A DNA stretch of 38,036 nucleotides from the NCBI GenBank assembly GCA_036478295.1, contig JAZGDW010000177.1, positions 1 to 38,036 on the forward strand. Direction: 5' to 3'. The stretch is from Candidatus Krumholzibacteriia bacterium (GTDB lineage: Bacteria; Krumholzibacteriota; Krumholzibacteriia; WVZY01). The notes under the pieces were generated by a model. The model did not search any database. It had not been told where the DNA came from and was given only the letters and a program-made list of their open reading frames with translations. Within the stretch, counting starts at the first letter, position 1, and the number at the start of each line of letters is the position of its first letter. This document shows, one piece after another, positions 3,547-27,916 of this stretch. The position numbers and the translations under genes were made by a program.

Positions 3547-5385
3547 TTGACAGCCGCACCTCGCAGAAAGTCGTTGGCCCTGCTCGTCACCCTTGTTCTC
3601 GGCGCCGTCGCGGGACCGACCCCGGCGCTGGAGCTCGATCTCATCGGCGAGCCGGTGTCGCTCGAGACCTACCGCTCGCTCAGTAGTGTGCCGCGGGGTG
3701 GGACGGTCGATGTTGCGGTGGCGCTGAAGCTCAAGGGCCACTGGCATGTCAACGCCCACCGTGTGAACGATGAGTTCCTGATCCCGACGAGTGTCGTGAT
3801 CGAAGCTCCAAAGGGTGTATCGGTCGACGGCATCGTCTACCCGGCCGCAGTCGAGAAGAAACTCTCGTTCTCTGAGAAACCACTGGCCCTCTACGAAGGA
3901 GAGGCCTTGATCGGGGTGAGATTAACCGTCTCTCCAGAGGTCGACACCGACGAGGTCACCGTGAACCTGACGGTGACCTACCAGGCGTGCGACAACGAGA
4001 AGTGCCTGGCGCCGGAGAACAAGACCCTCGCCGTGACGCTGCCCGTCTCGCCGCCGACCGAAGCGATCGATGCCACCCACACCGACGTTTTCGCCAGGAT
4101 CGATTTTTCATCGCTGGCCGCTTCCGCCGGAACGGGCGAGGGCAGCCGGCTCGGCTCGATCATCGGCAGCCAGGGTTTGCTGGTCGCGTTTCTGCTCGTG
4201 TTCGTCTGGGGCCTGGCGCTCAACCTGACTCCCTGCGTTTACCCGATTATCCCCATTACCATCGGTTATTTCGGCAGCCAGAGCGGTGGCAGGACATCGC
4301 GTACCCTCCTGCTCGCCGTGTTGTACGTGCTGGGCATGGCCACGACGTACTCTACACTTGGGCTCATCGCCGCCTTGACGGGGAGCATTCTCGGCTCGGC
4401 GCTGCAGAATCCTTTTGTGGTGTCGTTCGTCGCGCTGGTCATGGTTGGCCTGGCGATGTCGATGTTCGGCGCCTACGATATCAAGGTGCCGGCGCGGCTG
4501 AGCAACCTGGCCGGTTCGTCATCGTCGAAACAGGGGGTGCTCGGCGCGTTTCTCATGGGTTTGACGGTGGGAATCGTAGCCGCTCCGTGCATCGGACCGT
4601 TTGTCCTGGCCCTTCTCACGTTCGTGGGCGAGAGCGCGAATCCCCTCCTGGGATTCTGGCTCTTCTTCACTCTGGCCCTCGGGCTCGGCCTTCCGTTCAT
4701 ATTTCTGGCCGTCTTGTCGAGTAGCATCACACGGCTGCCCAAATCCGGTGAGTGGATGGAGTGGGTCAAGAAGCTGTTCGGCATGGTCCTCGTGGGTATG
4801 GCCATCTTCTTTCTCCAGCCCCTGATCGGTGACCCGGTCTACTGGGCGCTGACCGGGGTTCTTTTCGTGACGGGTGGTATCATGCTCGGATTCCTCAAAA
4901 AAACGCAGACTACCGCGCTGTTCTTCGTGGTCTTCAAGCGCTTCGTGGGAATCGCCGCCCCGCTTTTCGGGCTATACTTGATTCTCACGCCAGGGCACAT
5001 CATCGCAAGGGGGGGCGTGGGCGGCATCGACTGGAACGCATACGACAACCGCCTGCTCACGGAAGCGAGCCGGAATGATCAATACGTGCTCATCGATTTC
5101 GCGGCCGAGTGGTGCCTTCCCTGCAAGGAACTGGACCACAAGACCTTCTCGCAGCCCGAAGTGGTCGATGCTACCTCGGAATTCGTCCTCCTCAAGGCGG
5201 ACTTGACCCAGAGTGCATCGAAAGAGGTCGCAGACCTGCGAAAGAAGTTCTCGATAAGGGGCGTTCCTACCATCGTTTTCATGGACCCGGACGGCAAAGA
5301 GCGCCTCGATCTAAGGGTCCTCGGCTTTGTCGACAAGACGGAATTCCTGCGGCGCATCGATGAGCTGAAGAACGGGTCCTCCTGA
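3547..5385 (+). CDS. dsbD: Thiol:disulfide interchange protein DsbD (three-domain)
   Basis: TTG start after AAAGGA; signal peptide; N-domain YQACDNEKCLAP; TM domain LTPCVYPIIP and AAPCIGP; C-terminal thioredoxin DFAAEWCLPCK. Confidence 0.92.
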   Translation: MTAAPRRKSLALLVTLVLGAVAGPTPALELDLIGEPVSLETYRSLSSVPRGGTVDVAVALKLKGHWHVNAHRVNDEFLIPTSVVIEAPKGVSVDGIVYPAAVEKKLSFSEKPLALYEGEALIGVRLTVSPEVDTDEVTVNLTVTYQACDNEKCLAPENKTLAVTLPVSPPTEAIDATHTDVFARIDFSSLAASAGTGEGSRLGSIIGSQGLLVAFLLVFVWGLALNLTPCVYPIIPITIGYFGSQSGGRTSRTLLLAVLYVLGMATTYSTLGLIAALTGSILGSALQNPFVVSFVALVMVGLAMSMFGAYDIKVPARLSNLAGSSSSKQGVLGAFLMGLTVGIVAAPCIGPFVLALLTFVGESANPLLGFWLFFTLALGLGLPFIFLAVLSSSITRLPKSGEWMEWVKKLFGMVLVGMAIFFLQPLIGDPVYWALTGVLFVTGGIMLGFLKKTQTTALFFVVFKRFVGIAAPLFGLYLILTPGHIIARGGVGGIDWNAYDNRLLTEASRNDQYVLIDFAAEWCLPCKELDHKTFSQPEVVDATSEFVLLKADLTQSASKEVADLRKKFSIRGVPTIVFMDPDGKERLDLRVLGFVDKTEFLRRIDELKNGSS

Positions 5386-6315: not shown

Positions 6316-7587
6316 TTGTTCGTGAACGACACCGCTCCAGGAAATCGCCGCAGGATCCTTGTCCTCTCGCCCTGGAAGCGCCAGAGATCGCTTGGAAAGG
6401 GAGCCGGCGTCGCAGACGACTACCGGTTTTGCAAGCGGCTCACCGAGAACGGTTTCGAGCTGCATTTCCTCTCGCCGCGGAGCAGAGTTGCACCGGAATT
6501 CTCTTTCGAGAACCATGTCAGTCATACCTTCCCGAATTTCTTCGACGCGACGAGAACGTGGCCGACCTTCCTGCGAAGGATCCTGTGGCCATTGCTGTTC
6601 AACGTTATCGTAATCCCGCGTGCTCTCTCAATCGCCAGGCGCATCCGCCCCCATTTCGTCCTCGGCCATTCCCACTACGGATCGCTGGCGAGCTACCTGG
6701 TCAGGGAGTTCTTCCAGGTGCCCTCGGCGGTAAAGCTCTTCGGCGTTATGGACCTGGTCCACACCGAATGGCCCCGCAGACGGTATTTGCTGAAAAACCT
6801 CGAACAGATCATGGCGCTGAAGATCCCGCAGGATGCCTGGATTATCCTGGACGACGGGACGCGGGGAGACGAGGCCGCCATCCGCCACGGGGTGGCCAGG
6901 GAGAGAATCCACTTCCTTCCCAACGGTATCAACGTGGAGTGGGCGAACGGATCCTACGACGGCGAAAAGGTCCGGCAAGAGTTCGGTATTCCCGCGGAGG
7001 CGCAAGTGGTGCTGTTTCTGGGAAGGTTGGTCGACTGGAAGCGTCCGGAAACGATCCTGCGGGCAGCCCCGTCAATATTACACCGCGCGCGCGGTCGGGT
7101 GATTTTCCTCATCGTCGGGGACGGGCCCGAACGCAAGCGCTGCGAGTTGCTGGCGGGGGAACTCGGCGTGGCCGGGGACGTCGTGTTCGCCGGCGCCCAG
7201 CTGCACGAGCGCGTTCCGGAAATAATGGCGGCAACCGACGTCCTGGTAGCCACGGGCGGCGTGTCCAATATGGCGATCCCGACCTGCGAGGCACTCGTCT
7301 GCGGTGTAGCCGTAGCCGCCTTCGACACCGGCAACACGGGTAGCGTCATCAAGGACGGTAAAACCGGGCGATTGGTTCCCGACGGTGACGTGGACGCCCT
7401 CGCGGAGGCTGTTGCCGATCTCCTCAATAACGACGAAACGCGCCGGGCAATAAGCCGGCGCGCACGTGAATTCGCCTGCAACAACTTCACCGGGTGGGAC
7501 GAGCGGGTCGATATGGAAATCGAGTTGATCTTGAGCTTGATCGAACGCCGCGGCACCCACCGCCTCGGAGCTAAGCCCGTTCCTTGA
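6316..7587 (+). CDS. Glycosyltransferase family 4 (GT-B)
   Basis: LPNGIN, FLGRLVDWKRP, IVGDGPER, GKTGRLVPDGDVDALAEA. Start could be GTG 6322. Confidence 0.88.
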   Translation: MFVNDTAPGNRRRILVLSPWKRQRSLGKGAGVADDYRFCKRLTENGFELHFLSPRSRVAPEFSFENHVSHTFPNFFDATRTWPTFLRRILWPLLFNVIVIPRALSIARRIRPHFVLGHSHYGSLASYLVREFFQVPSAVKLFGVMDLVHTEWPRRRYLLKNLEQIMALKIPQDAWIILDDGTRGDEAAIRHGVARERIHFLPNGINVEWANGSYDGEKVRQEFGIPAEAQVVLFLGRLVDWKRPETILRAAPSILHRARGRVIFLIVGDGPERKRCELLAGELGVAGDVVFAGAQLHERVPEIMAATDVLVATGGVSNMAIPTCEALVCGVAVAAFDTGNTGSVIKDGKTGRLVPDGDVDALAEAVADLLNNDETRRAISRRAREFACNNFTGWDERVDMEIELILSLIERRGTHRLGAKPVP

Positions 7588-8650
7588 GCAGCTCGGCGAC
7601 CGCTTTCTCGAGATCCCTGCCGCGCAACGAGCGGTAACGAACCTTGCCTTGGCGGTCGATCAGATACGTCGTCGGAATCGAACGCACCTTGTACTTTGCC
7701 GCAACACTATTGTTCCATCCAGCGCCGTCGAAGTACTGCGGCCATTCCATGCCGCTGCTCTTGATATATCTCTGCATGGCGGAGCGGTCGCTGTCGAGCG
7801 AGATCCCAATAATCTCGAAGCCTTTGTCCCGGTACTTCTTGTGGACGCTGACCACGTTCGGCATCTCCACGCGGCACGGCCCGCACCACGTGGCCCAGAA
7901 ATCGAGGAGCACGACCTTGCCCCGGTACTTCTCCAGCGAAAGCTCCCGGCCGTCGATCCCCTTGACGTCGAAGGGAATCGGGTCGCCTCCGATCGCGAGC
8001 TTTTTCAGCGTGTCCAGGTCGCTGAGACTCATGGTAACCGACGCGAGGAGTTGCCGGTTCAGGCTGCTGTACTGGTCGACGAAAATCTCGAAGTGTTTCT
8101 TGGCCTTTTTGAACCGATCCGCTTTTTTGTAGGACTCGCCCAGGTAGTAATGGGCATAACCGACTTTGTCGCTTTTCTCGCCTCCGCTCGCATCAACAAA
8201 CGCGTTCATGTACTCGATTGAACGCTTTGACCTCTGAAGCGCGTAGTAGAGCGTCCCCAGTTGAAATCTGGCGTCGTTGCCCTCGGTCGTGTTCGGGTAC
8301 TCGCCCACGAAACCTACGAGCAGGGTTTCCATCTCTCCGATCGATTTCATCGCCGCCTGCTGCGAGGTCGCACTGGAGGCTGCCTTCTCCAACTCCCTGA
8401 CCTTCGCTAGCACGGCGTCGTACGCGCTGATGCTGGCACTGTTGCCGGCGGACGCCTCGGACGTCTGCGCCGTCTCGACCGGAGTCTCCACGGACGTTGC
8501 CGTCGCTTTGGTCTCGTCGGCCGTCGTCGCCACCTCGGTCTTGTCGGCCGTCGTCGCCGCTTCGGTCTCATTGGACCGCTGGCCGCACGCCGTCGCAAAA
8601 AGCGTGGCTGCGAGAGCCATACCGATGATCAATCTGAGCGTGATGTTCAT
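7571..8650 (-). CDS. TlpA/ResA-family thiol-disulfide oxidoreductase lipoprotein with a TPR-like region
   Basis: Lipobox-like …LFATA|C; Thr/Ala/Glu-rich linker; TPR-like helices (ARFQLGTLYY, AHYYLGESY); GKVVLLDFWATWCGPC; IPTTYLIDRQG. Confidence 0.9.
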   Translation of the reverse strand: MNITLRLIIGMALAATLFATACGQRSNETEAATTADKTEVATTADETKATATSVETPVETAQTSEASAGNSASISAYDAVLAKVRELEKAASSATSQQAAMKSIGEMETLLVGFVGEYPNTTEGNDARFQLGTLYYALQRSKRSIEYMNAFVDASGGEKSDKVGYAHYYLGESYKKADRFKKAKKHFEIFVDQYSSLNRQLLASVTMSLSDLDTLKKLAIGGDPIPFDVKGIDGRELSLEKYRGKVVLLDFWATWCGPCRVEMPNVVSVHKKYRDKGFEIIGISLDSDRSAMQRYIKSSGMEWPQYFDGAGWNNSVAAKYKVRSIPTTYLIDRQGKVRYRSLRGRDLEKAVAELLKERA

Positions 8651-8693
8651 GCTGAAACCCTCTTGGCTGTGATAATCCCTAAGGCAGTCGCCG

Positions 8694-9704
8694 CTAGATC
8701 TTACGGGCCCGCAACTGGACCCTCAACGACGGTTCCTGAGGATCATCGGTGCTGATAATCATTTCATCGAGAAACGCTCGTGCAGTAACCCCCGGCTGGA
8801 AGTTGACGGTAACCCGATATTTCTTTCCCTCTTCGATCGGCTCCACGCTCGCGTGGAACATGTCGTTCGAAAACTTGATATCCCTTATCGTAAACTCGCC
8901 CTTTACCTTGAAAATAGTCAAGGACTTCTCGACACCGGCAAGACTGCTCTCCCCCGACACGGACCCAAAGTTCAGGGTGGAAGGCTGCACGACAATGGAC
9001 CCCCTGGTGGTCACGTTGACCTGGATTTTCTTCTCAGGCGCGTTTTCACTGTTGGTCAAAACGGTCAACGATCCCCACGTGTTCAACGTCGGTAGTTTGG
9101 GGTTCTTGATCAGCCGGATCTTGTACGTGCCTTGCTCGGGTTGTGGCACCACCTTGTAGGTGATCTTGTCGTCGATATTCGACGACAGTCCCACGATTTT
9201 GAAATCCTTCTTCTTTTCGCTCGAGGTTATCGTCAGTTCCTTGACGACTTTTTCCCCGTACATGCCGCGCAGGAAAACACGGGTCGACGGCGTGACTTCC
9301 ACGTAGTGGAGAATCTTGCCCGCCAACGATACCGTCATGCGTGGGTGTTTCGGGTCGTTGGTAAAAATCGTCGCGCTCTTGTTGAACCTTCCTGACACTT
9401 TCGCTCCGAGGATCTCGAGATGAACTTTGCCCTCCTGACCAGGAGGAATGACCGCATCGAACTGGGCCACTGTGCAGCCTCAGCCAGGCTGGACTTTTTC
9501 GATCTTCAAATCGGCTGTCCCGACGTTCTTTATGACGAAAGAGTGCTTGTACACTTTCTGCTCGAAAATTTCGCCAAAATCGTGACGAGTCTCCTCGATG
9601 AGGACTACCGGTTCTTCTCCCTCAGCAAAGGCGACGCCGGCCGATGCCACCATCACGGCGAGCATCGCCGCGAGACATACACCAGCACTTATTCTCCTGC
9701 GCAT
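8694..9704 (-). CDS. Exported DUF1573/Ig-like protein, probable selenoprotein (Sec75, UGA at 9482..9480)
   Basis: ORFs 9480..9704 and 8694..9470 are in the same frame. Read-through gives HDFGEI…HSFVIKNVGTADLKIEKVQPG-U-GCTVAQFDAVIPPGQEGKV, matching the DUF1573 CGCT motif with the first Cys as TGA. GAGGAG RBS and signal peptide (…AFA|EGE). 336 aa. Confidence 0.82.
9431..9479 (-). promoter_or_regulatory. Candidate bacterial SECIS element(s) after the UGA of the DUF1573 gene
   Basis: mRNA after UGA can fold AGUGGCC-CA/GUUCGA loop/UG-(C)-GGUCAUU, with the loop starting at G 18 nt after UGA. A second perfect hairpin CCUCCU-GGUC-AGGAGG lies at 9446..9431. Folded by eye. Confidence 0.55.
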
Positions 9705-9997
9705 TGAACTACTCCTCGTTGGGACCGCCGCTGGCGACGGTCTCGCCCGATAAGTCGGGCCCTGGGGTCAAAACTTGCAATAAGAATACCCATTCCATGG
9801 GAAGCCATGGAAAATGTGGGCGCAAATGCCTGATATTCTAATATACCCCAGTGAAAGCATGAGTTCCATTGTTTTTGCGGCTACCTGTCGGGTTCGGGTG
9901 GTGAGGGACTCTGCAGCCGTTGCGAAAGGCGTGTACACCGCCAGTTTGACAGTGGTCTCGCCCTCGGAGCGTGCGGCTTCTTGAACCGAATCATGGG

Positions 9998-10026
9998 TTG
10001 CGGGTTGGCGTACCGGTTCTTATATT
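9998..10026 (+). promoter_or_regulatory. Possible sigma70-type promoter for the cysteine synthase operon
   Basis: TTGCGG (9998-10003) - 17 nt - TATATT (10021-10026). Confidence 0.4.
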
Positions 10027-10163
10027 AATGACAACAACGGCCCCGGAGTATATCCACATAAGCCGCAGTTACTAAATCAGCTACACAGTTCATGGTTCGA
10101 CGGTGCGGGCACGGGAGCACTGGCGTGGTACGCGCTCACCTCCGCGGCCGCCACAAAACCCGA

Positions 10164-11129
10164 ATGATGTCGAATATTCCGTACAAATCGGACCCGGGTA
10201 CCGGTTCCAACGGAGATCCTCTTGGCTTGAGGATCGGGCACACGCCGCTCTTGAAGCTCGAGTCTGTAAGCCGCCTGTTCACAGGAGTTTCGATCCACGC
10301 GAAGGCCGAGTGGTATAACCGGGGAGGCTCCGTGAAGGACCGGGCCGCCCACCGCATGCTACTCGAGGCCGAGCTGACGGGAGCCCTCCGGGACGGGAAG
10401 ACGATCCTCGATGCGACCTCGGGCAACACGGGCATCTCTTATGCTTGGATCGGCGCTGTCAAAGGCTATCCGGTACGCCTGGTGGTACCTGAGAACGTCG
10501 GAACCGACCGCAAACGCATTTTGCAAGCCTATGGTGCTGAAGTTATCTACACGGATCCTTTGCTGGGAGTTGACGGCGCGATCGAAAAAGCGCGTTCCCT
10601 TTATGCGGGTGAGCCGGCCAAGTATTTCTACGCAGACCAGTACCGGAACCCAGCCAACTGGAAAGCCCACTATGACCATACGGCGGTGGAGATCTGGGAG
10701 CAGACTGGCGGCGCCCTGACCCATTTCGTCGCCGGGCTGGGCACGAGCGGAACCTTCGTGGGGACCGCGCGTCGTTTGAAATCCCTCAGTCCCGGTATCC
10801 GCTGTATATCGGTCGAGCCCGATGGACCCTTTCACGGTCTCGAGGGACTCAAGCACATGGGGAGTGCCGTCGTTCCGGCCATTTACGACGAGAGTCTTGC
10901 GGACGAAAAGCGGCAGGTGCGCACAGAGGACGCGTACGCAATGGCCCGCACCCTTGCGCGGGAGGAAGGCTTGCTAGTCGGTCCTTCGGGGGCGGCCGCG
11001 GTAACCGCGTGCGTCGAGATCGCCGATGAGTTACCGAAGCACCGGCAGGCACTCATCGTCACCGTCCTTCCAGACAGCGGCGACAGGTACCTGAGTGAGC
11101 AGCTCTGGAACGAGGACAGCACGACGTGA
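10164..11129 (+). CDS. cysM: PLP-dependent cysteine synthase (CysM-like)
   Basis: IGHTPL, KAEWYNRGGSVKDR (PLP Lys), ATSGNTG, GLGTSGT, EEGLLVGPSG, PDSGDRYLS. Start uncertain (10164, 10167 or 10092). Confidence 0.88.
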   Translation: MMSNIPYKSDPGTGSNGDPLGLRIGHTPLLKLESVSRLFTGVSIHAKAEWYNRGGSVKDRAAHRMLLEAELTGALRDGKTILDATSGNTGISYAWIGAVKGYPVRLVVPENVGTDRKRILQAYGAEVIYTDPLLGVDGAIEKARSLYAGEPAKYFYADQYRNPANWKAHYDHTAVEIWEQTGGALTHFVAGLGTSGTFVGTARRLKSLSPGIRCISVEPDGPFHGLEGLKHMGSAVVPAIYDESLADEKRQVRTEDAYAMARTLAREEGLLVGPSGAAAVTACVEIADELPKHRQALIVTVLPDSGDRYLSEQLWNEDSTT

Positions 11130-11551
11130 TTTCTATCCATGAAAAACTCCTGAAAGAACTGCGTTGTCACGCCCGCCAGGAATATCCACGGGAGTGCTGT
11201 GGTGCTCTCATCGGCAAACGCGGGGTTTCCACGAGGGAAGTGCTCGCTGTCGTTCCGCTGGACAATCAGCGACGCGGTACCGCTGCCCTTCGGAGATTCC
11301 TGGTTTCCGCAGGTGATTACCGCCGCCTGGAAAAACATGCCGCAGAGCGCAAACTGGACGTTCTCGGGTTCTATCACTCTCATCCCGACCATCGGGCGTC
11401 TCCGTCTGCTTTCGATCGCGAGCATGCGCTTCCGTGGTACGCTTATGTAATCGTAGGAGTTGACAATGGCAACGCCGGAGAAATCACCTGCTGGACGCTT
11501 TCTGAGGATCGATCGCGCTTTGTACCGGAACCCATAACCGTGGGACATTGA
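11126..11551 (+). CDS. JAB/MPN+ (JAMM) metalloprotease, Mec-like
   Basis: EYPRECCG and GFYHSHPDHRASPSAFD (E…HxH-x7-S-x2-D). The GTG start overlaps the cysM stop (GTGA). Confidence 0.92.
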   Translation: MISIHEKLLKELRCHARQEYPRECCGALIGKRGVSTREVLAVVPLDNQRRGTAALRRFLVSAGDYRRLEKHAAERKLDVLGFYHSHPDHRASPSAFDREHALPWYAYVIVGVDNGNAGEITCWTLSEDRSRFVPEPITVGH

Positions 11552-11571
11552 CTTTCGTCAAGGAGAAGTGA

Positions 11572-13017
11572 GTGGACATGCCCATCACCGTTATGATACC
11601 GACGCCCTTGCGGCAGTTTGTAGGCAAGAGAGATTCCGTCGAGCTGGAGGCGCGTACCGTAGGAAAACTACTGGCTGCCCTGGTTGAGAAACACCCTGAC
11701 CTCGGGCGACACTTGTACACGGATGATGGCAGTCTGCGAAGCTTTGTGAATGTCTATGTAAATGATAAAGACATCCGATACCTGGAAAGAACCGCCACAA
11801 CAGTTAATGACGGAGACGTTGTGAGCATCGTACCTTCGATCGCGGGGGGGTCCGAGAAGGCCGGTGTCTCAGGCGGCCCGGCGCTTTCTCCAGACGAAAT
11901 CCTCCGCTACAGCCGCCACCTCATCATGCCCGAAGTCGCAATGAAGGGGCAGCTCAAGCTGAAATCCGCGAGCGTCTTGATGATCGGCGCCGGTGGGCTC
12001 GGGGCTCCGCTGGGTCTATACCTCGCCGCCGCGGGCGTCGGCGAACTGGGGCTTGTGGATTTCGATGTCGTGGAGTTAACGAACTTGCAGCGACAGGTAA
12101 CTTTTGGCACGAAAGACGTCGGGCGACCCAAGCTTGAGGCGGCCATAGAGCGCCTCACTGATCTGAACCCGAACATCAACATGAATGCCCATGAAACGAG
12201 ACTCACCAGCAAGAACGCCGTGGATATACTCGGACACTACGACCTGGTCGTCGACGGCACCGATAACTTTGCGACTCGTTACCTCGTCAACGACGCGTGT
12301 GTTCTTCTTGGAAAGCCCAACGTCTATGGCAGCATTTTCCGGTTCGAGGGACAGGCGACCGTATTCGCCCACAGAGACGGGCCCTGTTATCGCTGTCTCT
12401 ACCCCGAGCCCCCACCGCCCGGGCTGGTCCCCAGTTGCGCCGAGGGTGGCGTGCTCGGAGTTCTACCCGGGATCGTTGGTGCCATCCAGGCGAGCGAAGC
12501 TATCAAACTGATTCTGGGTTTTGGAGAGACATTGGCGGGACGACTGCTGCTTTTCGACGCGCAGATGATGAAGTTCCGTGAACTTGAGATCCACAAGAAC
12601 CCGGATTGCCCCGTTTGCGGCGACGACCCGACGATCACGGAACTGATCGACTACGACGAGTTCTGCGGGATTCGAGCTGAAGAGATGGCGCCCCAAGTGG
12701 AGGTTCCTGAAATGACGGCGCGTGAGTTGAAGTCACGTATGGACGCCGGAAACCAGCCGTTCATCCTCGACGTGCGTGAGCCACATGAATACGAGATTTG
12801 TAATCTGGATGGTCACTTGATTCCACTGGCCGAGATTCCGGCGCGGGTGCACGAGCTTGACTCGGCGCACGACATAGTGGTGTACTGCCGCTCAGGGGTC
12901 CGTTCCGCCTCGGCTGTGGATTTCTTGAGACAGGCCGGATTTCGCAAGGTGTGGAACCTTCGTGGCGGGATCCTCGCCTGGGCGGACGACATCGATCCCT
13001 CGATTCCGAAGTACTGA
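11572..13017 (+). CDS. moeB: Fusion of MoaD/ThiS/CysO-like ubiquitin-like domain + MoeB/ThiF E1-like adenylyltransferase + rhodanese (MoeZ-like)
   Basis: N-terminal MPITVMIPTPLR…VSIVPSIAGG (Ubl, GG ends at 11850); RYSRH, IGAGGLG, DFDVVELTNLQRQ, DGTDNF, CYRC/CPVC zinc sites, PSCAEGG; rhodanese LDVREPHE and YCRSGVRS. Start may be ATG 11578. Confidence 0.92.
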   Translation: MDMPITVMIPTPLRQFVGKRDSVELEARTVGKLLAALVEKHPDLGRHLYTDDGSLRSFVNVYVNDKDIRYLERTATTVNDGDVVSIVPSIAGGSEKAGVSGGPALSPDEILRYSRHLIMPEVAMKGQLKLKSASVLMIGAGGLGAPLGLYLAAAGVGELGLVDFDVVELTNLQRQVTFGTKDVGRPKLEAAIERLTDLNPNINMNAHETRLTSKNAVDILGHYDLVVDGTDNFATRYLVNDACVLLGKPNVYGSIFRFEGQATVFAHRDGPCYRCLYPEPPPPGLVPSCAEGGVLGVLPGIVGAIQASEAIKLILGFGETLAGRLLLFDAQMMKFRELEIHKNPDCPVCGDDPTITELIDYDEFCGIRAEEMAPQVEVPEMTARELKSRMDAGNQPFILDVREPHEYEICNLDGHLIPLAEIPARVHELDSAHDIVVYCRSGVRSASAVDFLRQAGFRKVWNLRGGILAWADDIDPSIPKY

Positions 13018-18302: not shown

Positions 18303-19312
18303 GCCCCGTTGGCCCGCGGGCGTTCCCCGCCGGCATTCGCCGCGACGATTCGCGCGTTCCTCCGCAGGCCCCGCGCCTTGCAACGGCCTATGGCGCTGTC
18401 GCGCGTCAGCTCGCGGAAGTTCTCGTCGGAGAGCACGGCAAGCTCGCGCGTGGACATTGCGAGCAGCAGGTTCACCGGTTCACCCGCGAAGATTTCAGAA
18501 TCATGCGCGTAGTTGTTGAACGGACAGACCGCCTGGCAGTCATCACATCCAAACAGGTTGTCACCAATGGCGTGGTGGAATTCGACGGGTATATCACCGC
18601 GCTTCTCGATGGTAAGGTAGGAGATGCACTTCGTAGCATCGAGGACGTAGGCCTCATCCAGAGCGCCGGTCGGGCACGCATCCATGCACCGGGTGCACGA
18701 GCCACACAGGCTACGCAGGGGCACATCACTTGTCAGTTCCAGGTTCGTGATCAACTCGCCGAGAAATATCCACGAACCGCACTCCGGCGAAATCGCCATC
18801 GTATTCTTGCCCAGCCAAGCGATGCCCGCCCTCACCGCCAGGTCTCGCTCGGAAATGGGCTGCGTATCGACGCATATCGCCGACTGCAACCGTGGAAAGA
18901 AATCCTTCAAGCGGCGCTCGAGCTCACCGAGCATTTCGGTGAGCACCGAGTGGTAGTCGCGACAGTGGGCGTAGAGAGAAAACCGGCCTTCGCCGGTCTC
19001 CAATCGCCTGCGGTTCTTTCTTGCCAACGAGTCGGAATAGTAGTTCACGGCCACGCATACCACCGACTGGGCTCCGGGGAGCAACAGTCCGGGGTCATGA
19101 CGCTTGTCCTTTCCCCCCGAGAGGTAGCGCATCTCACCGTGCTTCCCCTCGTCGATCCAGCGATCGAACACACGGCTGGATTCGGGTGACGGTTTGACGC
19201 CCGCTATCCCCACTCCGGAAAAACCAATGTCGTACGCGGTGTTCTTGATCAGGGATTCGGTAGAGTAGGCGACGTGCGAAGTGGCGCTATTCTCTTTCGT
19301 CTCCGGACTCAT
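18287..19312 (-). CDS. queG: tRNA epoxyqueuosine(34) reductase QueG
   Basis: HGEMRYL, YA..RDYH, AGIAWLGKN, GSWIFLGEL, CGSCTRCMDACPT, CISYLTIE, GCDDCQAVCPFN. Confidence 0.95.
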   Translation of the reverse strand: MSPETKENSATSHVAYSTESLIKNTAYDIGFSGVGIAGVKPSPESSRVFDRWIDEGKHGEMRYLSGGKDKRHDPGLLLPGAQSVVCVAVNYYSDSLARKNRRRLETGEGRFSLYAHCRDYHSVLTEMLGELERRLKDFFPRLQSAICVDTQPISERDLAVRAGIAWLGKNTMAISPECGSWIFLGELITNLELTSDVPLRSLCGSCTRCMDACPTGALDEAYVLDATKCISYLTIEKRGDIPVEFHHAIGDNLFGCDDCQAVCPFNNYAHDSEIFAGEPVNLLLAMSTRELAVLSDENFRELTRDSAIGRCKARGLRRNARIVAANAGGERPRANGAQGPT

Positions 19313-21707
19313 AGTAGTCTCTTATCTGCTCCGCGAACTTCTCCAGTTTTTTGTCCACCCGATCGTTGACGCTGTCTTTCTCGAAGCTGCCATCGCCGGC
19401 CTGCGCGCCCCCCCGGACACCCGTGAGCAGCTCTATCCCCTCGTCAATGGTCTCGACCGAATAGACGTGAAACTTCCCGTCCTTGATGGTCTCTACGACA
19501 TCCGTGCGAAGCATGAGATCGACCTCATTCAGCTTCGGAATAATCACGCCCTGGGTACCCGTGAAGCCCTTTGCCTTGCAGATGTCATAGAAGCCGTGGA
19601 TCTTCTCGTTGACACCCCCAATCGGCTGGATCTCCCCTTTCTGGTTCACCGAGCCGGTCACGGTCAGGTCCTGGCGCAACGGCAGATCGCCGAGGCTCGA
19701 CAGCAGCCCGTAGATCTCCGTCGACGACGCGCTGTCGCCGTCCACGCCGCCGTACGATTGCTCGAAACAGATGCTGGCGCTCATCGCGAGCGGCCGGCTC
19801 TGCGCAAACCGGCTCCGCAGGTAGCCCTCGAGAATCAGGCTGCCCTTGTTGTACGTCTTTCCGCTCATCTCGGCCTCTCGCTCGATGTTGATAATCCCCG
19901 CCCTGCCCATGGAGGTCTCGACCGTAATGCGGACGGGCTTGCCGAAAGCATAGTCGCCGAGATCAAAGACCGAGAGGCCGTTGACCTGGCCGATTTTCTC
20001 ACCGTCGATATCCAGCAGAATGGTTCCGTCCACGAGCATCTCACTCATCTTCTCTTCCGACAAGTTCACCCGGTGAATCCGCTCTTCGACCGCTTTTCCG
20101 ACGTGCTCCGCTCGTACCATTGCCTCCCCGGCCTTGTGGGTCCAGTAGCTGGCCTCTCTGGCGATATCGGCGACGTCGCTGAACCTCGTTGTCAGCTTGT
20201 CCTGCCTGCCCGCGATCTCCGCACCCTGCTCGGCGCACGCTGCCACCGCGGACTTGTGAAACGGAAGCAGGTCTTCCTCCGTGATGAGGTTCTTGATGAA
20301 CTGACCGTACTTGTTCAGATTTTCCTGGTTGTTAGGCATCTCGGTGTCGAAGTCCGCCTTGACCTTGAAAATTTTGCGGAAATCCTCGTCGTACTGGTAC
20401 ATAACCTGGTACGACTCGGCGTCTCCAATCAACACCACCTTGACATCGATGTCGATCGGCTGCGGCTTGAGCGCCGACGTCGGCCCGAAGAACGTCGTTT
20501 CCAGCGCCTGAATGGAGATTTTTTTGTTCTTCAATGTTCTCTTCAAAGCAGGCCACACCGCCGGCTCTTCGAAGATCTCGGTCAGGCTCATCACCAGGAA
20601 TCCCCCGTTTGCCCGCAGCAACGACCCCGCACGTATCATCGTCAGGTCGGTCCTCTCTCCGATACGGTCTGCCGTGATGCGTTCGATGGTGCCGAAAACG
20701 TTGCGATAGGTGGGAGCGGTCTCGATGATAATCGGCGCTTCCTTGGAGCGAGCGTTCTCGACGATGACGTTCACTTCAAATTCCACAAAGGCCCTGGTGC
20801 GTTTTTGAACATCCGGCTCTTCGGACTCGAGAAACAGATCCAGGTTGTCGACGCTATACTCGCGCAGCTCCGCCAGGTACTCGTGCACGTCTCCACTGGG
20901 AAAACGCTCCTCGACTTCCTTGACACAAGTGTCGACGATCGGACTGACGAACTGCTTTTGAAGCGAGCGTATCTTTTCTGTGAGATCACGATCCTCGTCG
21001 CGAGTCGCCTTGAGGAACGCCTCCATCTTGCCGGTCAAGTCTTCGTGGTCTTTCCCCAGGCGATCGAACTCCGCCTGCTCCAGCTGCCCCGCGGTGACTC
21101 GCCCCTGGAGTTCCTCCATTTCCACCGGCTTGCCGTCGATTACCGGCACGATCGCCGGCCGTGTAAAGGGTCCGTATTGCACTTCGTGCAGCTGAAATCC
21201 TTTTTTCTCGATCAGTTTTTCGAACTCGCCGCCCTGTTCGCCCCGGCGGCTCTTCGCCTGCGAGACAATTCGCTTGTGCCGTTCCGTATAGCTGTCGCTT
21301 TCGAGCACCTTGGGTACATGCTCGCGCAACGTTTTGACCACCTCCACCATGCTCTTCTTGAAAATCGCCCCCTGGCCGGCCGGCAGGTAGACGCACACCG
21401 GCTCCTCGGGTGCTCTGAAGTTGTGGACGTAACAGATATCCTGGAGTTGTTTTTCCTCCTTGGGCAGGCCGCGAAGCAGCCTCTGGATCGTGGTCGATTT
21501 GCCGGTGCCGGTGAGGCCGGACACGTAGATATTGTAGCCGGGGCTGGAAATCTCGAGGCCCAGCCGGATTGCGTCGAGAGCCCGGTCCTGCCCGATGATT
21601 TCGCGGCAGCACTCCACGTCGTCAGTGCTCTCGAACCCGAAACGGTCCGGGTCGCACCGCCACCTCAGGTTTTCGACGCCCACCCTGTGGTCGGATACAT
21701 CGCCCAT
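19287..21707 (-). CDS. Lon-like AAA+ protease (LonC / AAA_32 type)
   Basis: IIGQDRA, Walker A GLTGTGKST, AGSLLRANGGFL, GQVNGL, catalytic DGDSAS and IGGVNEKI; GAGGAGG RBS. Confidence 0.92.
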   Translation of the reverse strand: MGDVSDHRVGVENLRWRCDPDRFGFESTDDVECCREIIGQDRALDAIRLGLEISSPGYNIYVSGLTGTGKSTTIQRLLRGLPKEEKQLQDICYVHNFRAPEEPVCVYLPAGQGAIFKKSMVEVVKTLREHVPKVLESDSYTERHKRIVSQAKSRRGEQGGEFEKLIEKKGFQLHEVQYGPFTRPAIVPVIDGKPVEMEELQGRVTAGQLEQAEFDRLGKDHEDLTGKMEAFLKATRDEDRDLTEKIRSLQKQFVSPIVDTCVKEVEERFPSGDVHEYLAELREYSVDNLDLFLESEEPDVQKRTRAFVEFEVNVIVENARSKEAPIIIETAPTYRNVFGTIERITADRIGERTDLTMIRAGSLLRANGGFLVMSLTEIFEEPAVWPALKRTLKNKKISIQALETTFFGPTSALKPQPIDIDVKVVLIGDAESYQVMYQYDEDFRKIFKVKADFDTEMPNNQENLNKYGQFIKNLITEEDLLPFHKSAVAACAEQGAEIAGRQDKLTTRFSDVADIAREASYWTHKAGEAMVRAEHVGKAVEERIHRVNLSEEKMSEMLVDGTILLDIDGEKIGQVNGLSVFDLGDYAFGKPVRITVETSMGRAGIINIEREAEMSGKTYNKGSLILEGYLRSRFAQSRPLAMSASICFEQSYGGVDGDSASSTEIYGLLSSLGDLPLRQDLTVTGSVNQKGEIQPIGGVNEKIHGFYDICKAKGFTGTQGVIIPKLNEVDLMLRTDVVETIKDGKFHVYSVETIDEGIELLTGVRGGAQAGDGSFEKDSVNDRVDKKLEKFAEQIRDYYESGDERE

Positions 21708-24669: not shown

Positions 24670-25767
24670 TCAGGGCAAGAAGTGTTCAGGGTGCTTCAAC
24701 TTCCTTGGGAGGTAGGTGTCGATGACGTAGTTGAGGCCGTGTTTGGCCAGCGCCTGCTGCTCCGCTCTCACGCCCATCTTGATCAACTGTTCCAGGGCGC
24801 GCTGCCACGATTTGTGGTGTAACACGAAGGGATCGTTCGCGAGGGCGTCCTTGGCGCGCTTGATATCCACGTCCTTCAGCGGGTGGGTGGGCAACTCGTA
24901 GGTCACGATATCCTGCGGCGTAATACCCAAAAATCGCGCCTGAGGTACGCAGAAGAACTCGTTCACATGCGCCGCGTTCCCGCTGCCGACCTTGAGCGTC
25001 CGGTAAATGTTGCTGAACCCGTATGGGTCGCCATCCACAAAGACATACACCGCCATCTTTCGCGTGTCGGCAAGTCTACGGATGAACCGTCTGCACGCCC
25101 GTGTCGGCACACCGCCCATCGACACCAGGATACAGTTGGCCTTCTTCCAGTAGTTGTGCTTCACCAGCCGCTGGAACATCCCCGCAGTCTCGATCACCAG
25201 GATGAAATCCGCTTTGGTCTCGAACTCCAGGTGTTCCACCGCTATGGGAATCGAGTAGGCGCCGCTACCGAACTTCGTGCAGTCGATTCGTATTTCCTTG
25301 CCCGTGTCGTGATCGACGTCGATCACGACCAGCTTTCCCGCGATATCCCCGCCTTTTTCTTCGGGAATAAAACCGAGCTGTTCGCGGTTCAGGCTGAAAA
25401 ACGCCTCGACGTCGTCGATTACCGCATCGGATTCCGGCTGCTCGTTGAACCGGGCCGCGTCCCAGTTCTTCGACACGTAATATGCCTCTCGTTTGGTGGC
25501 AACGTCATCGGTCTCGATGAGCTCCTTGGAGAGAGCCATTATGCGCAGCGTCTGCGCAAAGGTCTTCACCGTGTTCACGGTGAGGGTTCTTTCCTTTTTC
25601 CTTCCCCGCATTTCAAAATAGCCGCTCTTGGGGTGGTAACGGACGTTCGAGAGCGCCCGCAGCGGGAATTTCATCACGGGCTTCTTACCGTCGAGGATGG
25701 CGCTCTTGATGCGCGTCGCTTCGGACTTTATTCGTTTGGTCACGCTATTCTTCTTGGCCACTGTCAT
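24670..25767 (-). CDS. top6A: DNA topoisomerase VI subunit A (Spo11-like)
   Basis: TKREAYY (catalytic Tyr region), FNEQPESD, LVIETAGMFQRL, GVPTRACR, DGDPYG (TOPRIM DxD), AEQQAL. Confidence 0.92.
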   Translation of the reverse strand: MTVAKKNSVTKRIKSEATRIKSAILDGKKPVMKFPLRALSNVRYHPKSGYFEMRGRKKERTLTVNTVKTFAQTLRIMALSKELIETDDVATKREAYYVSKNWDAARFNEQPESDAVIDDVEAFFSLNREQLGFIPEEKGGDIAGKLVVIDVDHDTGKEIRIDCTKFGSGAYSIPIAVEHLEFETKADFILVIETAGMFQRLVKHNYWKKANCILVSMGGVPTRACRRFIRRLADTRKMAVYVFVDGDPYGFSNIYRTLKVGSGNAAHVNEFFCVPQARFLGITPQDIVTYELPTHPLKDVDIKRAKDALANDPFVLHHKSWQRALEQLIKMGVRAEQQALAKHGLNYVIDTYLPRKLKHPEHFLP

Positions 25768-25783
25768 CTCCCTGGTGCTGTCG

Positions 25784-27613
25784 TCAATGTTTTCTGCTCC
25801 GCTCCAGCGTCGTCTTCAAACGATCGACCAGCTTCGTTTCTTCGCGTTCGGAGAAATCGAGTATTTCCTGCAGGGCTATACCAATATGAGGAATGTATTT
25901 CTCGATGTACGAACGTTTCTTCTCTTCCTCGCGCGCGCGCATGCCCTTGCGGATAAAGCGGGCCAGTCGTCGCCCGCATTCCTGCAGCGCGAGCTTGATC
26001 TCCTTGATGATCTCGGGGTAATGGGCGATGGCCTCCTTGCCCTCCGAAGTGAACGGTACCCACGCCGAAGCGATATGCACCAGGACCAGCAGCGGGCCCG
26101 ACGGCAGCGCGCCGCGTGATTGCGGCACGCCGTAGCTCTTCCAGGCGGTGGCAATCATCGACTGGGTGATGGCGCAGGCGGACTGCTGGTAGATGAGCGG
26201 CGCCCTGTTCGCGAAACGGTATAGTTTGACCGTATCCTCTTCGGTAAAAGAAGGGCCGCCGTACGCGAAGGCCACTTCGATCTGAAAGGGGTTTCCACGG
26301 TAGACGGCGGGGGGACGGGTCACCGCCGTTGTGAACGTCGCGTCGACCTCCCGACCGACGCTCCTTAGAAGCAGTTCCTCCCCGATGGGGGAGAGGCAGT
26401 TGGTCGGCGGCTTCATGATCTTGGCGCGAGCGAACGACTTGATTATCGCTTCGGCTTCGTCCCGGGTCACGCGGCTCGGCCGCGTGGATGTCTTGACGCC
26501 CGCGATTTCCAGGACCTCCAGGCATACCCTCGAGCTCATGCGGGAAAACTCTGTCTCGAGAAAGCTGCGCACGTTCCGCGCCTTGGTGAGTTTGAGCATA
26601 TCGAGCAACACACCGAGCTCCACACCGTGCGGGTGCGGCTGGATCGCCCTCGCCTCGACGGGCAACTCGTTCGCCAGCCGCTCGTAGACGACCTTTTCAC
26701 CACGCGGCGGGTGGTACACGATCTCCGCGTGGGGATTCGCCATGGCCACCTGGTGCAGGTACGCGTCCACCGAACGCTGGCCTTTCTTGTAGGCGGCAAG
26801 AATCTCCATCTCCACACGGATTCCGTGTGGCCGCTCCCAATCGGTCGTGTTGTCGCTCAGAATTACGGGGTTGTTGGTCTTGGTGTCGATCTGCAGCTCG
26901 TAGACGTGTCCCTTATGCCGCGACCCGGTGCGCGTAATGACCCTGACCGGTATGCCCGTAGTCAGCTGTGCGTACATTCCTGCGGCGGAAATGCCGATTC
27001 CCTGCTGTCCCCGGGCCTGTTTGAGAATATGAAACTTGGAGCCGTAGAGAAGTTTGCCGAAAATCTTCGGTACCTGTGATTTGACAATCCCCGGGCCCGA
27101 ATCCTCGACGACCAGACGGAAGCGGTTCTCGGAAACCTCGTGTATCTCGACCAGAATGTCTGGGAGTATCCCGGCTTCTTCGCACGCGTCGAGCGCGTTG
27201 TCGACGGCCTCCTTGACCGCCGTCAGCAGCGCCTTCGGCAGACTGTCGAACCCCAGCAAGTGCCTATTCTTGGCGAAGAACTCACTGATCGAGATCTCGC
27301 GCTGGCGGACCGCGATCGTTTGCGCCGTCTGATACTGTTTTTGCTTCGGTTGCTTGTCGCGGGCCACTGGTGCGCCTGCGGTCGCCGTGTTCGTCTTGCC
27401 GCCGGCGGTGCCCTCCCCATCGCCCGCAGCCGTGTCCTCCTCCCTGGCCTCAAAGAGCGGCAGGGCTTCGGTGATTTCGTCTGGCGTCTTCCGTCGCCCC
27501 CGCGCCGCTTTCGACGGCGCCTTCTTGCCCTTGCCGCGCGGTTTGGCCGCGGGCGCCTTCTTGCCCTTGCCGCGCGATTTCGTCGTTTTTTTCTTCGAGG
27601 CCACCCGTGGCAC
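25784..27613 (-). CDS. top6B: DNA topoisomerase VI subunit B (GHKL ATPase) with a basic N-terminal extension
   Basis: EISISEFFAKNRHLLGFD, KEAVDNALDACEEAGILP, EDSGPGI, YGSKF, RGQQGIG, PHPHGVE, YRGNPF, RFANRAPL, WVPFTSEGKEAI. GTG 27613 is 6 nt after GGGAG. Confidence 0.92.
   Translation of the reverse strand: MPRVASKKKTTKSRGKGKKAPAAKPRGKGKKAPSKAARGRRKTPDEITEALPLFEAREEDTAAGDGEGTAGGKTNTATAGAPVARDKQPKQKQYQTAQTIAVRQREISISEFFAKNRHLLGFDSLPKALLTAVKEAVDNALDACEEAGILPDILVEIHEVSENRFRLVVEDSGPGIVKSQVPKIFGKLLYGSKFHILKQARGQQGIGISAAGMYAQLTTGIPVRVITRTGSRHKGHVYELQIDTKTNNPVILSDNTTDWERPHGIRVEMEILAAYKKGQRSVDAYLHQVAMANPHAEIVYHPPRGEKVVYERLANELPVEARAIQPHPHGVELGVLLDMLKLTKARNVRSFLETEFSRMSSRVCLEVLEIAGVKTSTRPSRVTRDEAEAIIKSFARAKIMKPPTNCLSPIGEELLLRSVGREVDATFTTAVTRPPAVYRGNPFQIEVAFAYGGPSFTEEDTVKLYRFANRAPLIYQQSACAITQSMIATAWKSYGVPQSRGALPSGPLLVLVHIASAWVPFTSEGKEAIAHYPEIIKEIKLALQECGRRLARFIRKGMRAREEEKKRSYIEKYIPHIGIALQEILDFSEREETKLVDRLKTTLERSRKH
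27516..27576 (-). repeat. 25-bp direct repeat (36-bp period) in the top6B N-terminus encoding RGKGKKAP twice
   Basis: GGCGCCTTCTTGCCCTTGCCGCGCG at 27516-27540 and 27552-27576. Confidence 0.85.
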
Positions 27614-27681
27614 TGCCGACTCCCTTCGCCGTTTACCGGACGAATTCCGTTCCCCACCGGATTTGCTCAAAACCCGTTCGC

Positions 27682-27711
27682 ATACTAATGATACCCCCCA
27701 GATCCTGTCAA
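27682..27711 (-). promoter_or_regulatory. sigma70-type promoter for top6B-top6A
   Basis: TTGACA (27711..27706) - 18 nt - TAGTAT (27687..27682). Confidence 0.5.
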
Positions 27712-27916
27712 CGCTTGCTTCGGGCCGACGGGTTTCGGGTGTGTGGTTCGTCCCGCGTCCGGTACCCTGACCGGTCCCGCTAGAAAACTCCGTGCTGGAG
27801 GGGGCGAAGGGAATGATTATTGCTTTCCCAGCACGGCGCGGGAAGCAGTCCCGGCGGGTTCGAACCACCCGAGGGCGGTCACCGCCGCACGCAGCGGGCG
27901 ATCGCACGCATTCAAT

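Follow-up and report, generated by a model that had tools for sequence, protein, structure and literature searches.

A gene on the minus strand of the window (the whole stretch of 38,036 nt analyzed here) is a new member of the DUF1573/OS_HP2 selenoprotein family, which has been known since 2007, and its in-frame UGA almost certainly encodes selenocysteine (Sec), as judged by sequence comparison. The comparison shows selection on both the UGA and an RNA signal downstream of it, and a protein that contains no Sec is very unlikely. The product is proposed to act as an envelope redox relay with a TlpA-type partner and DsbD; we put the probability of this explanation as a whole at roughly 0.55. 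The gene is a routinely mis-split selenoprotein that was correctly caught, and not a discovery: the gene family was already known as a selenoprotein, and what is added here is a two-hairpin signal, a TPR-TlpA neighbor, and repeated Cys copies in tandem duplicates.

Reading frame, family, and decoding of the UGA

The features of the gene are as follows.

8694–9704, minus strand: gene for a probably exported DUF1573/OS_HP2 selenoprotein, 336 aa, with a signal peptide and three Ig-like domains
9712–9717, minus strand: ribosome-binding site GAGGAG, 7 nt before the ATG
9624–9704, minus strand: probable signal peptide (residues 1–27), assigned by inspection
9318–9599, minus strand: DUF1573/NF041425 domain (residues 36–129), which is the first Ig-like domain, with U75-G76-C77 in a loop between two strands
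9480–9482, minus strand: in-frame TGA, read as Sec75

The original prediction described two ORFs in one frame, served by one ribosome-binding site and separated by a TGA that is followed by GGC TGC ACA, and the minus-strand sequence bears this out. From the ATG (9704–9702), 74 codons lead to the TGA (9482–9480), with GGC TGC ACA directly 3′ of it, and 261 further codons lead to a TAG (8696–8694). Read-through translation yields 336 aa including KIEKVQPG-U-GCTVAQFDAVIPPGQEG, and U75 and C77 are the sole Sec or Cys residues of the mature chain. Elsewhere in this genome TGA serves as a normal stop, as had also been claimed: it closes 649 of the 1549 long ORFs that have a stop (1649 ORFs examined), dsbD and moeB/moeZ among the genes that terminate in it, and thus there is no reassignment of the code. 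A search of 7400–10200 for a sigma-70-like promoter found none, and no RNA run carrying the locus is among the matches listed in a search of sequencing runs.

The product had been described as a 336-aa exported Ig-fold protein; the length holds and the fold is present as three tandem Ig-like domains, while export rests on a signal peptide recognized by eye (MRRR, a hydrophobic run, and A-F-A at residues 25–27). An AlphaFold2 model, with U modeled as C (pLDDT 94.9, pTM 0.77), has three tandem β-sandwiches, and the U-G-C motif lies in the loop between the strands at mature residues 39–46 and 51–55. Fold searches return ASH/Hydin/PapD-type Ig domains, which are non-redox, and the top matches are all scaffold, S-layer, or pilus-chaperone Ig domains. 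The fold matches include the Ig domain of VesB (Z 11.2, rmsd 2.1, 96 aligned) and 2qsv, a P. gingivalis protein without an assigned function (Z 11.7, rmsd 11.0, 194 aligned). A fold shared with ASH/PapD domains says nothing on function. A sequence search of the PDB gives no significant match for domain 1 or for the family profile.

Family membership is indicated by Pfam PF07610 (DUF1573) at residues 36–129 (E 2.1e-24) and by the NCBIfam model NF041425, “OS_HP2 family (seleno)protein,” which scores 104.7 bits with U read as C, barely above its cut-off of 100, and 90 bits in a search of the DNA with the stop in place. Whether the family had been catalogued as a selenoprotein was left open in the original prediction; it had been. 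OS_HP2 was reported in 2007 as a new selenoprotein family of two sequences (Zhang & Gladyshev, PMC1976440), was linked in 2008 to pfam07610 with the motif UxC (PMC2398784), and is listed in reviews of 2022 and 2026 as “DUF1573 domain-containing protein, UGC” (PMC9312934, PMC13188914). The sources given in the text of the OS_HP2 papers are deltaproteobacterial symbionts and marine reads, and no mention of Krumholzibacteriota or Latescibacterota was found in the text of the 2026 review (PMC13188914). A literature search found no function for DUF1573 in the texts that it covered.

Among the 61 genomes searched, 55 have a match; these include all 12 genomes of the same family, and each of the 12 has a TGA copy. 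The closest named relative is 82% identical and is labeled Candidatus Krumholzibacteriia. The predicted alignment of the UGA with a conserved Cys is confirmed by the codon at the site, which is TGA in 25 and TGC or TGT in 25 of 50 distinct genes, with no other codon, in a count that leaves out two distant domains of locus L062. Full-length homologues in the databases have CGC at the site (30/30), and in 28 of these 30 Cys-type proteins no further Cys occurs beyond residue 30. In a tally within the order, Sec occurs in all 15 genomes with a single full-length-type copy, ten genomes have tandem Sec and Cys copies, and six have two Cys copies; tandem copies (2–3) occur in 16 genomes. In a protein tree of 61 sequences (Sec/Cys column masked, midpoint root, weak or short matches, L062 and L069 among them, left out), Cys copies are nested among Sec copies, and 10 changes of Sec/Cys label are needed, at least 8 of which are forced by well-supported branches. 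Repeated duplication followed by a change from Sec to Cys would be the simple reading of this tree. The idea that Cys-only loci belong to genomes without Sec machinery was rejected: selA is present in five of six Cys-only genomes, and the sixth (80% complete) has a TGA-containing selD. Among distant Sec-type genes, L068:3236-4267 (−) adjoins an ECF sigma factor gene (Pfam), and L069:2329-3417 (+), in which the motif is U-A-C and not U-G-C, adjoins a sigma-like ORF (by inspection).

The source genome, which is 91% complete, encodes the machinery for Sec insertion that the original prediction had asked to be looked for: selA (476 bits) and selB (383 bits), both above cut-off, and one tRNA with a UCA anticodon, which passes the Rfam tRNA-Sec cut-off. 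The selD gene is only partly assembled, being cut by a contig end, and carries an in-frame TGA of its own. Across the 61 genomes, selA is found in 56 and selD in 58. SECIS-dependent tRNA-ReC (SelC*) systems, by which the UGA would be read as Cys, exist and use SECIS elements (PMC13582414); however, this reading is the least probable of those considered here, given that only one UCA-anticodon tRNA, of the tRNA-Sec type, was found in the 91%-complete genome, and that selA is present.

It is also highly improbable that the UGA is a true stop, whether of two genes (a 74-aa piece and a 258-aa protein starting from GTG), of a pseudogene, or through an assembly error. In favor of a stop, UGA-GG doubles as a weak SD-like GAGG 7 nt before a GTG at 9470, which is the restart point chosen by gene callers and is kept in 58 of 68 Sec genes, and databases annotate the gene as split. 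As the original prediction anticipated for standard pipelines, 90 of the 120 database homologues listed (of 245) are shorter than 300 aa, and 84 of these 90 begin directly behind the site. Nevertheless, a break at this position would halve an Ig domain, the codon is always TGA and always falls at the Cys column, intact Cys paralogues lie next door, and 10 of the 68 Sec genes lack the GTG. An assembly error is opposed by contigs of runs X1, X3, and X5, from three other studies, which span 9480–9482 with the TGA unchanged, although one of these runs may be the source sample; run X4 covers these positions only by a short piece of another organism. Contigs of other organisms (X1, X4, X5) match the window DNA only over 60–75 nt within 9427–9504, around the UGA and the hairpins described below, and this island of nucleotide conservation agrees with a SECIS element.

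The recoding signal downstream of the UGA

Three features surround the Sec codon in the mRNA.

9448–9470, minus strand: hairpin H1, with a 6-bp stem that starts 9 nt after the UGA and an 11-nt loop of variable sequence
9430–9447, minus strand: hairpin H2, with a 7-bp stem and a GGUC loop (9440–9437) 39 nt after the UGA; proposed SelB-binding hairpin
9486–9488, minus strand: Pro codon CCT, two codons before the UGA, which can pair with the A of the UGA plus GG

The original claim of SECIS-like hairpins after the UGA is upheld by the comparison of Sec-type with Cys-type genes, but not by folding. By folding alone the hairpins do not exceed chance, with z-scores of 0.32, 0.17, and −0.76 for three stretches that start at the UGA and of −2.15 for the excised pair of hairpins. 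These scores are uninformative, and the reality of the hairpins rests on the comparison of Sec with Cys copies. A loose genome-wide scan for Cys-flanked TGA codons with a hairpin returned 316 sites, mostly noise.

The structure compared was derived from Sec sequences and has 16 pairs, which belong to H1, to H2, and to a short stem of 3 pairs over the UGA. In 31 Sec genes, 95.8% of cells are paired, 5 pairs are changed on both sides, and none of 500 shuffles scores as high, whereas in 25 Cys genes 63% are paired and 379 of 500 shuffles are equal or better. Since the structure was derived from these same 31 Sec genes, it was tested on 38 further loci, most of them TGA matches from families f5, f8, and f9 and some of them Cys copies. 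In these, H2 is intact (5/5 core pairs) in 36/37 Sec vs. 0/7 Cys genes, and H1 (6/6) in 32/37 vs. 1/7; in a pool of 100 genes, from which 10 more without the aligned Gly were set aside, H2 is intact in 65/68 Sec vs. 1/32 Cys genes and H1 in 59/68 vs. 2/32, although kin are not independent and all of these counts therefore overstate significance. Some compensatory changes alter the encoded amino acid in each of the two arms. In Sec genes, the four-fold sites of codons 73, 79, 80, 85, 87, 88, and 89 are 88–100% fixed, compared with at most 68% at 48 four-fold sites elsewhere in the gene. These comparisons show selection on the downstream RNA structure in Sec genes but not in Cys genes. For hydrogenases and SelD, Cys-type relatives have been reported to lose SECIS features (PMC13582414).

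The consensus bSECIS model has G-G/U at the start of an apical loop of 3–9 nt, a stem of 4–16 bp, a free energy of −7.5 kcal/mol or lower, and a loop 16–37 nt from the UGA; the review that presents it also notes a subset of SECIS elements that do not fit (PMC13188914). The H2 loop has G-G-U/G, the third base of a Gly codon being unpaired, in 68/68 Sec vs. 9/32 Cys genes (10 genes without the Gly left out), and begins 38–39 nt after the UGA, 1–2 nt beyond the range of 16–37, an excess that could depend on how the distance is counted. The H1 loop is free to vary in sequence, and only 1 of 68 Sec genes has G-G/U at its start; in this gene, a GUUCGA loop at 17 nt, which agrees with the consensus, can alternatively be closed by H1, but this loop is not kept in relatives. 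Among the other candidate selenoprotein genes of the genome, a loop lies at 17–25 nt in seven of nine and none is called in two; selD folds a loop at 19 nt, and the loop of the Gpx gene (GGUCU, at 24 nt) is nearly identical to that of H2. Of the distant Sec members, L069 forms only one hairpin, the loop of which is GGUC at ~18 nt, and L068 has two hairpins with a loop at ~41 nt. H1 spans 23 nt, so folding of H1 would bring H2 into the range of 17–25 nt.

We lean toward a two-hairpin SECIS element, in which SelB would bind the distal H2 through its G-G-U/G loop and H1 would fold 23 nt of coding sequence away, restoring a reach of ~17–25 nt and freeing the loop codons for the needs of the protein. 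Such an element would persist in several families of the class, as well as in one Proteobacteria-labeled MAG, and would decay when a duplicate reverts to Cys. The excess of H2 over the consensus is, however, only 1–2 nt, the GUUCGA alternative of H1 lies at 17 nt, and 48 of 68 H1 loops carry a G at position 1 or 2, all of which count against H2 as the SelB site. A literature search limited to main texts found no description of a two-hairpin layout. If the proposal is true, two-hairpin SECIS elements could escape distance-limited SECIS searches. The suggestion of a looped-out spacer bears on selenoprotein prediction and on the fitting of SECIS elements within coding sequence, and the dozens of natural Sec/Cys paralogue pairs can show which bases the recoding signal needs.

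Upstream of the UGA, the synonymous codon CCT occupies position −2 in 49/68 Sec genes vs. 0/32 Cys genes. Pairing of this codon can close a stem of 3 bp over the UGA, the loop of which likewise begins G-G; the codon is puzzling because it is covered by the ribosome during decoding. A role of CCT in masking the SD-like GAGG before the GTG has no clear support, CCT being present in 45/58 Sec genes with the GTG and 4/10 without, among kin that are not independent. The 3′ arm of H2 (9430–9447, minus strand) is itself a perfect SD-like AGGAGG, paired by an anti-SD-like CCUCCU, with no start codon after it.

The selenoproteome of the genome is sizeable (G000: C109, C155, C98, C30, C37, C169, C220, C118; L083–L090, L005) and comprises candidates for Gpx, a Bcp-type peroxiredoxin, two DUF3179 proteins, UXX-star family 1, YHS, a glutaredoxin-like protein, and SelD, families being assigned for seven of the nine other candidate genes; their hairpin loops mostly begin C-G-U-G. 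A read-through filter by coding score (72 candidates) missed the DUF1573 gene itself, and thus the list for this genome is incomplete. One candidate, C76, proved to be two distinct genes, nrdR and tatC, and was discarded. One exported-looking protein (G000:C120:8999-9472 (+), L091:113-973) has an in-frame TGA in T-M-T-U-G-C-P and a hairpin loop at 17–18 nt. At the thresholds used it matches neither Pfam nor NCBIfam models, and matches in 3 of 41 genomes include a same-genus genome with TGA and one same-class genome with an open frame; it is a candidate selenoprotein that may lie outside the catalogued models. A further in-frame TGA (G000:C308:3478 (+), L085) lies in S-P-S-U-P-M-C (UxxC) in the C-terminal domain of a long ORF. 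The part scanned has no Pfam or NCBIfam match, and its matches include G037 (52% identical), with one TGA, and G034 (44%), with TAG.

Neighboring genes and proposed function

Two genes of the window are relevant to the proposed role.

7571–8650, minus strand: gene for a probable lipoprotein that combines TPR repeats with a thioredoxin domain of TlpA/ResA type (WCGPC), 43 nt downstream; proposed redox partner
3547–5385, plus strand: dsbD (Ig, membrane, and thioredoxin domains), at a distance of 3.3 kb; several relatives also have it close to the locus, and it may supply electrons

The tlpA gene lies downstream in 16 of the 18 named loci at order level (L043–L060; one of the misses is a contig edge), in 5/5 loci of families f5/f8, where the remaining neighborhood differs, and in 30 of the 38 further loci, among which contig ends truncate several. 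The WCxxC motif of TlpA is intact wherever it is covered (33 of 35 alignment rows). The gene is not beside L061, L062, L068, L069, or L071–L076; in all six of the last, which are Cys-type, MauE/DoxX and rhodanese genes adjoin (Pfam on one representative of each cluster). Because unrelated genes (GT4, FAA hydrolase, moeZ, HD) are also syntenic in the order, the synteny of tlpA and dsbD at this level is partly inertia, and only the tlpA link carries over into families f5/f8. A complex prediction scored 0.00, with the Cys-type DUF1573 and TlpA pair of L059 as stand-in, and counts neither for nor against the pairing. Elsewhere in the window, a divergent cluster of cysM, a Mec/JAB protease, and a ThiS/MoeZ fusion (sulfur-carrier cysteine synthesis; 10092–13017, plus strand) is syntenic with the selenoprotein gene in many relatives. 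The minus strand also carries a LonB/LonC-type protease gene (19287–21707) and archaeal-type topoisomerase VI A and B domains (24670–27907), the listed B-domain ORF starting at a GTG well upstream of the matched region.

A redox-relay function of the DUF1573 protein is given slightly better than even odds. Following known bacterial Sec decoding, SelB with Sec-tRNA would bind the RNA signal and insert Sec75; the protein would then be exported and would adopt a fold of three Ig-like domains of the ASH/PapD type. Within an exposed loop, U75 and C77 would cycle between selenol/thiol and selenenylsulfide, and the protein would serve as an envelope thiol-disulfide reductase/isomerase or redox shuttle on a long Ig scaffold. 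Its reduced state may be kept by the co-encoded TPR-TlpA lipoprotein, itself probably supplied by DsbD. A precedent is CsgC, an Ig-fold periplasmic protein related to nDsbD, which has a redox-active CxC at −139 mV; a CGC peptide has a potential of −167 mV (PMC3173608), and CxC peptides are reported to be able to replace PDI in yeast (preprint 10.64898/2026.01.27.701630). Neither CsgC nor nDsbD is among the fold matches listed for the present protein.

Two other functions are each considered unlikely. CxC pairs can bind soft metals, and U-G-C might accordingly bind a soft metal or a metalloid (Cu, Hg, As) in a protein that serves as an envelope chaperone or in detoxification; L061, a distant Sec member directly upstream of a gene for an ArsR-family regulator, would suit such a role. 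However, no metal-transport genes lie beside the clade, the neighbor is a CxxC TlpA, and the MauE/DoxX and rhodanese genes beside the Cys-type L071–L076 are likewise thiol- or sulfur-handling. The protein could instead be a structural or chaperone-like envelope protein (an ASH/PapD-like stalk), in which U-G-C would be non-catalytic and provide a stabilizing bond, a redox switch, or a covalent tether. This is consistent with the scaffold, S-layer, and pilus-chaperone domains at the top of the fold matches, with the 2–3 tandem copies in 16 genomes, and with the strong stabilization of CsgC by oxidation (PMC3173608). Nonetheless, the retention of Sec together with a costly RNA signal across the class, at ~27% protein identity, fits a catalytic residue better, as in the proposed redox relay, Sec being catalytic as a general rule.

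Comparison with known systems

H2 resembles the consensus bSECIS in lying within the reading frame, in having a small loop that starts with G-G/U, and in its stem length (4–16 bp) and folding energy (at or below −7.5 kcal/mol); it differs in the distance of this loop (38–39 nt) and in the second conserved stem ahead of it. The comparison with CsgC and nDsbD is one of working alike and not of family membership: the common element is an exported Ig-like β-sandwich, a loop of which holds two vicinal Cys (CxC in CsgC), whereas the present protein has three ASH/PapD-type Ig domains, and Sec replaces the first Cys. With the OS_HP2 family, the gene shares the domain, the U-G-C motif, Cys homologues in the same column, and a score above the NCBIfam cut-off. 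In the passages covered, the published descriptions of OS_HP2 give no SECIS element, neighbors, or function. By the present analysis, a family without a known function since 2007 gains a candidate partner (the TPR-TlpA lipoprotein) and a precedent (CsgC/nDsbD).
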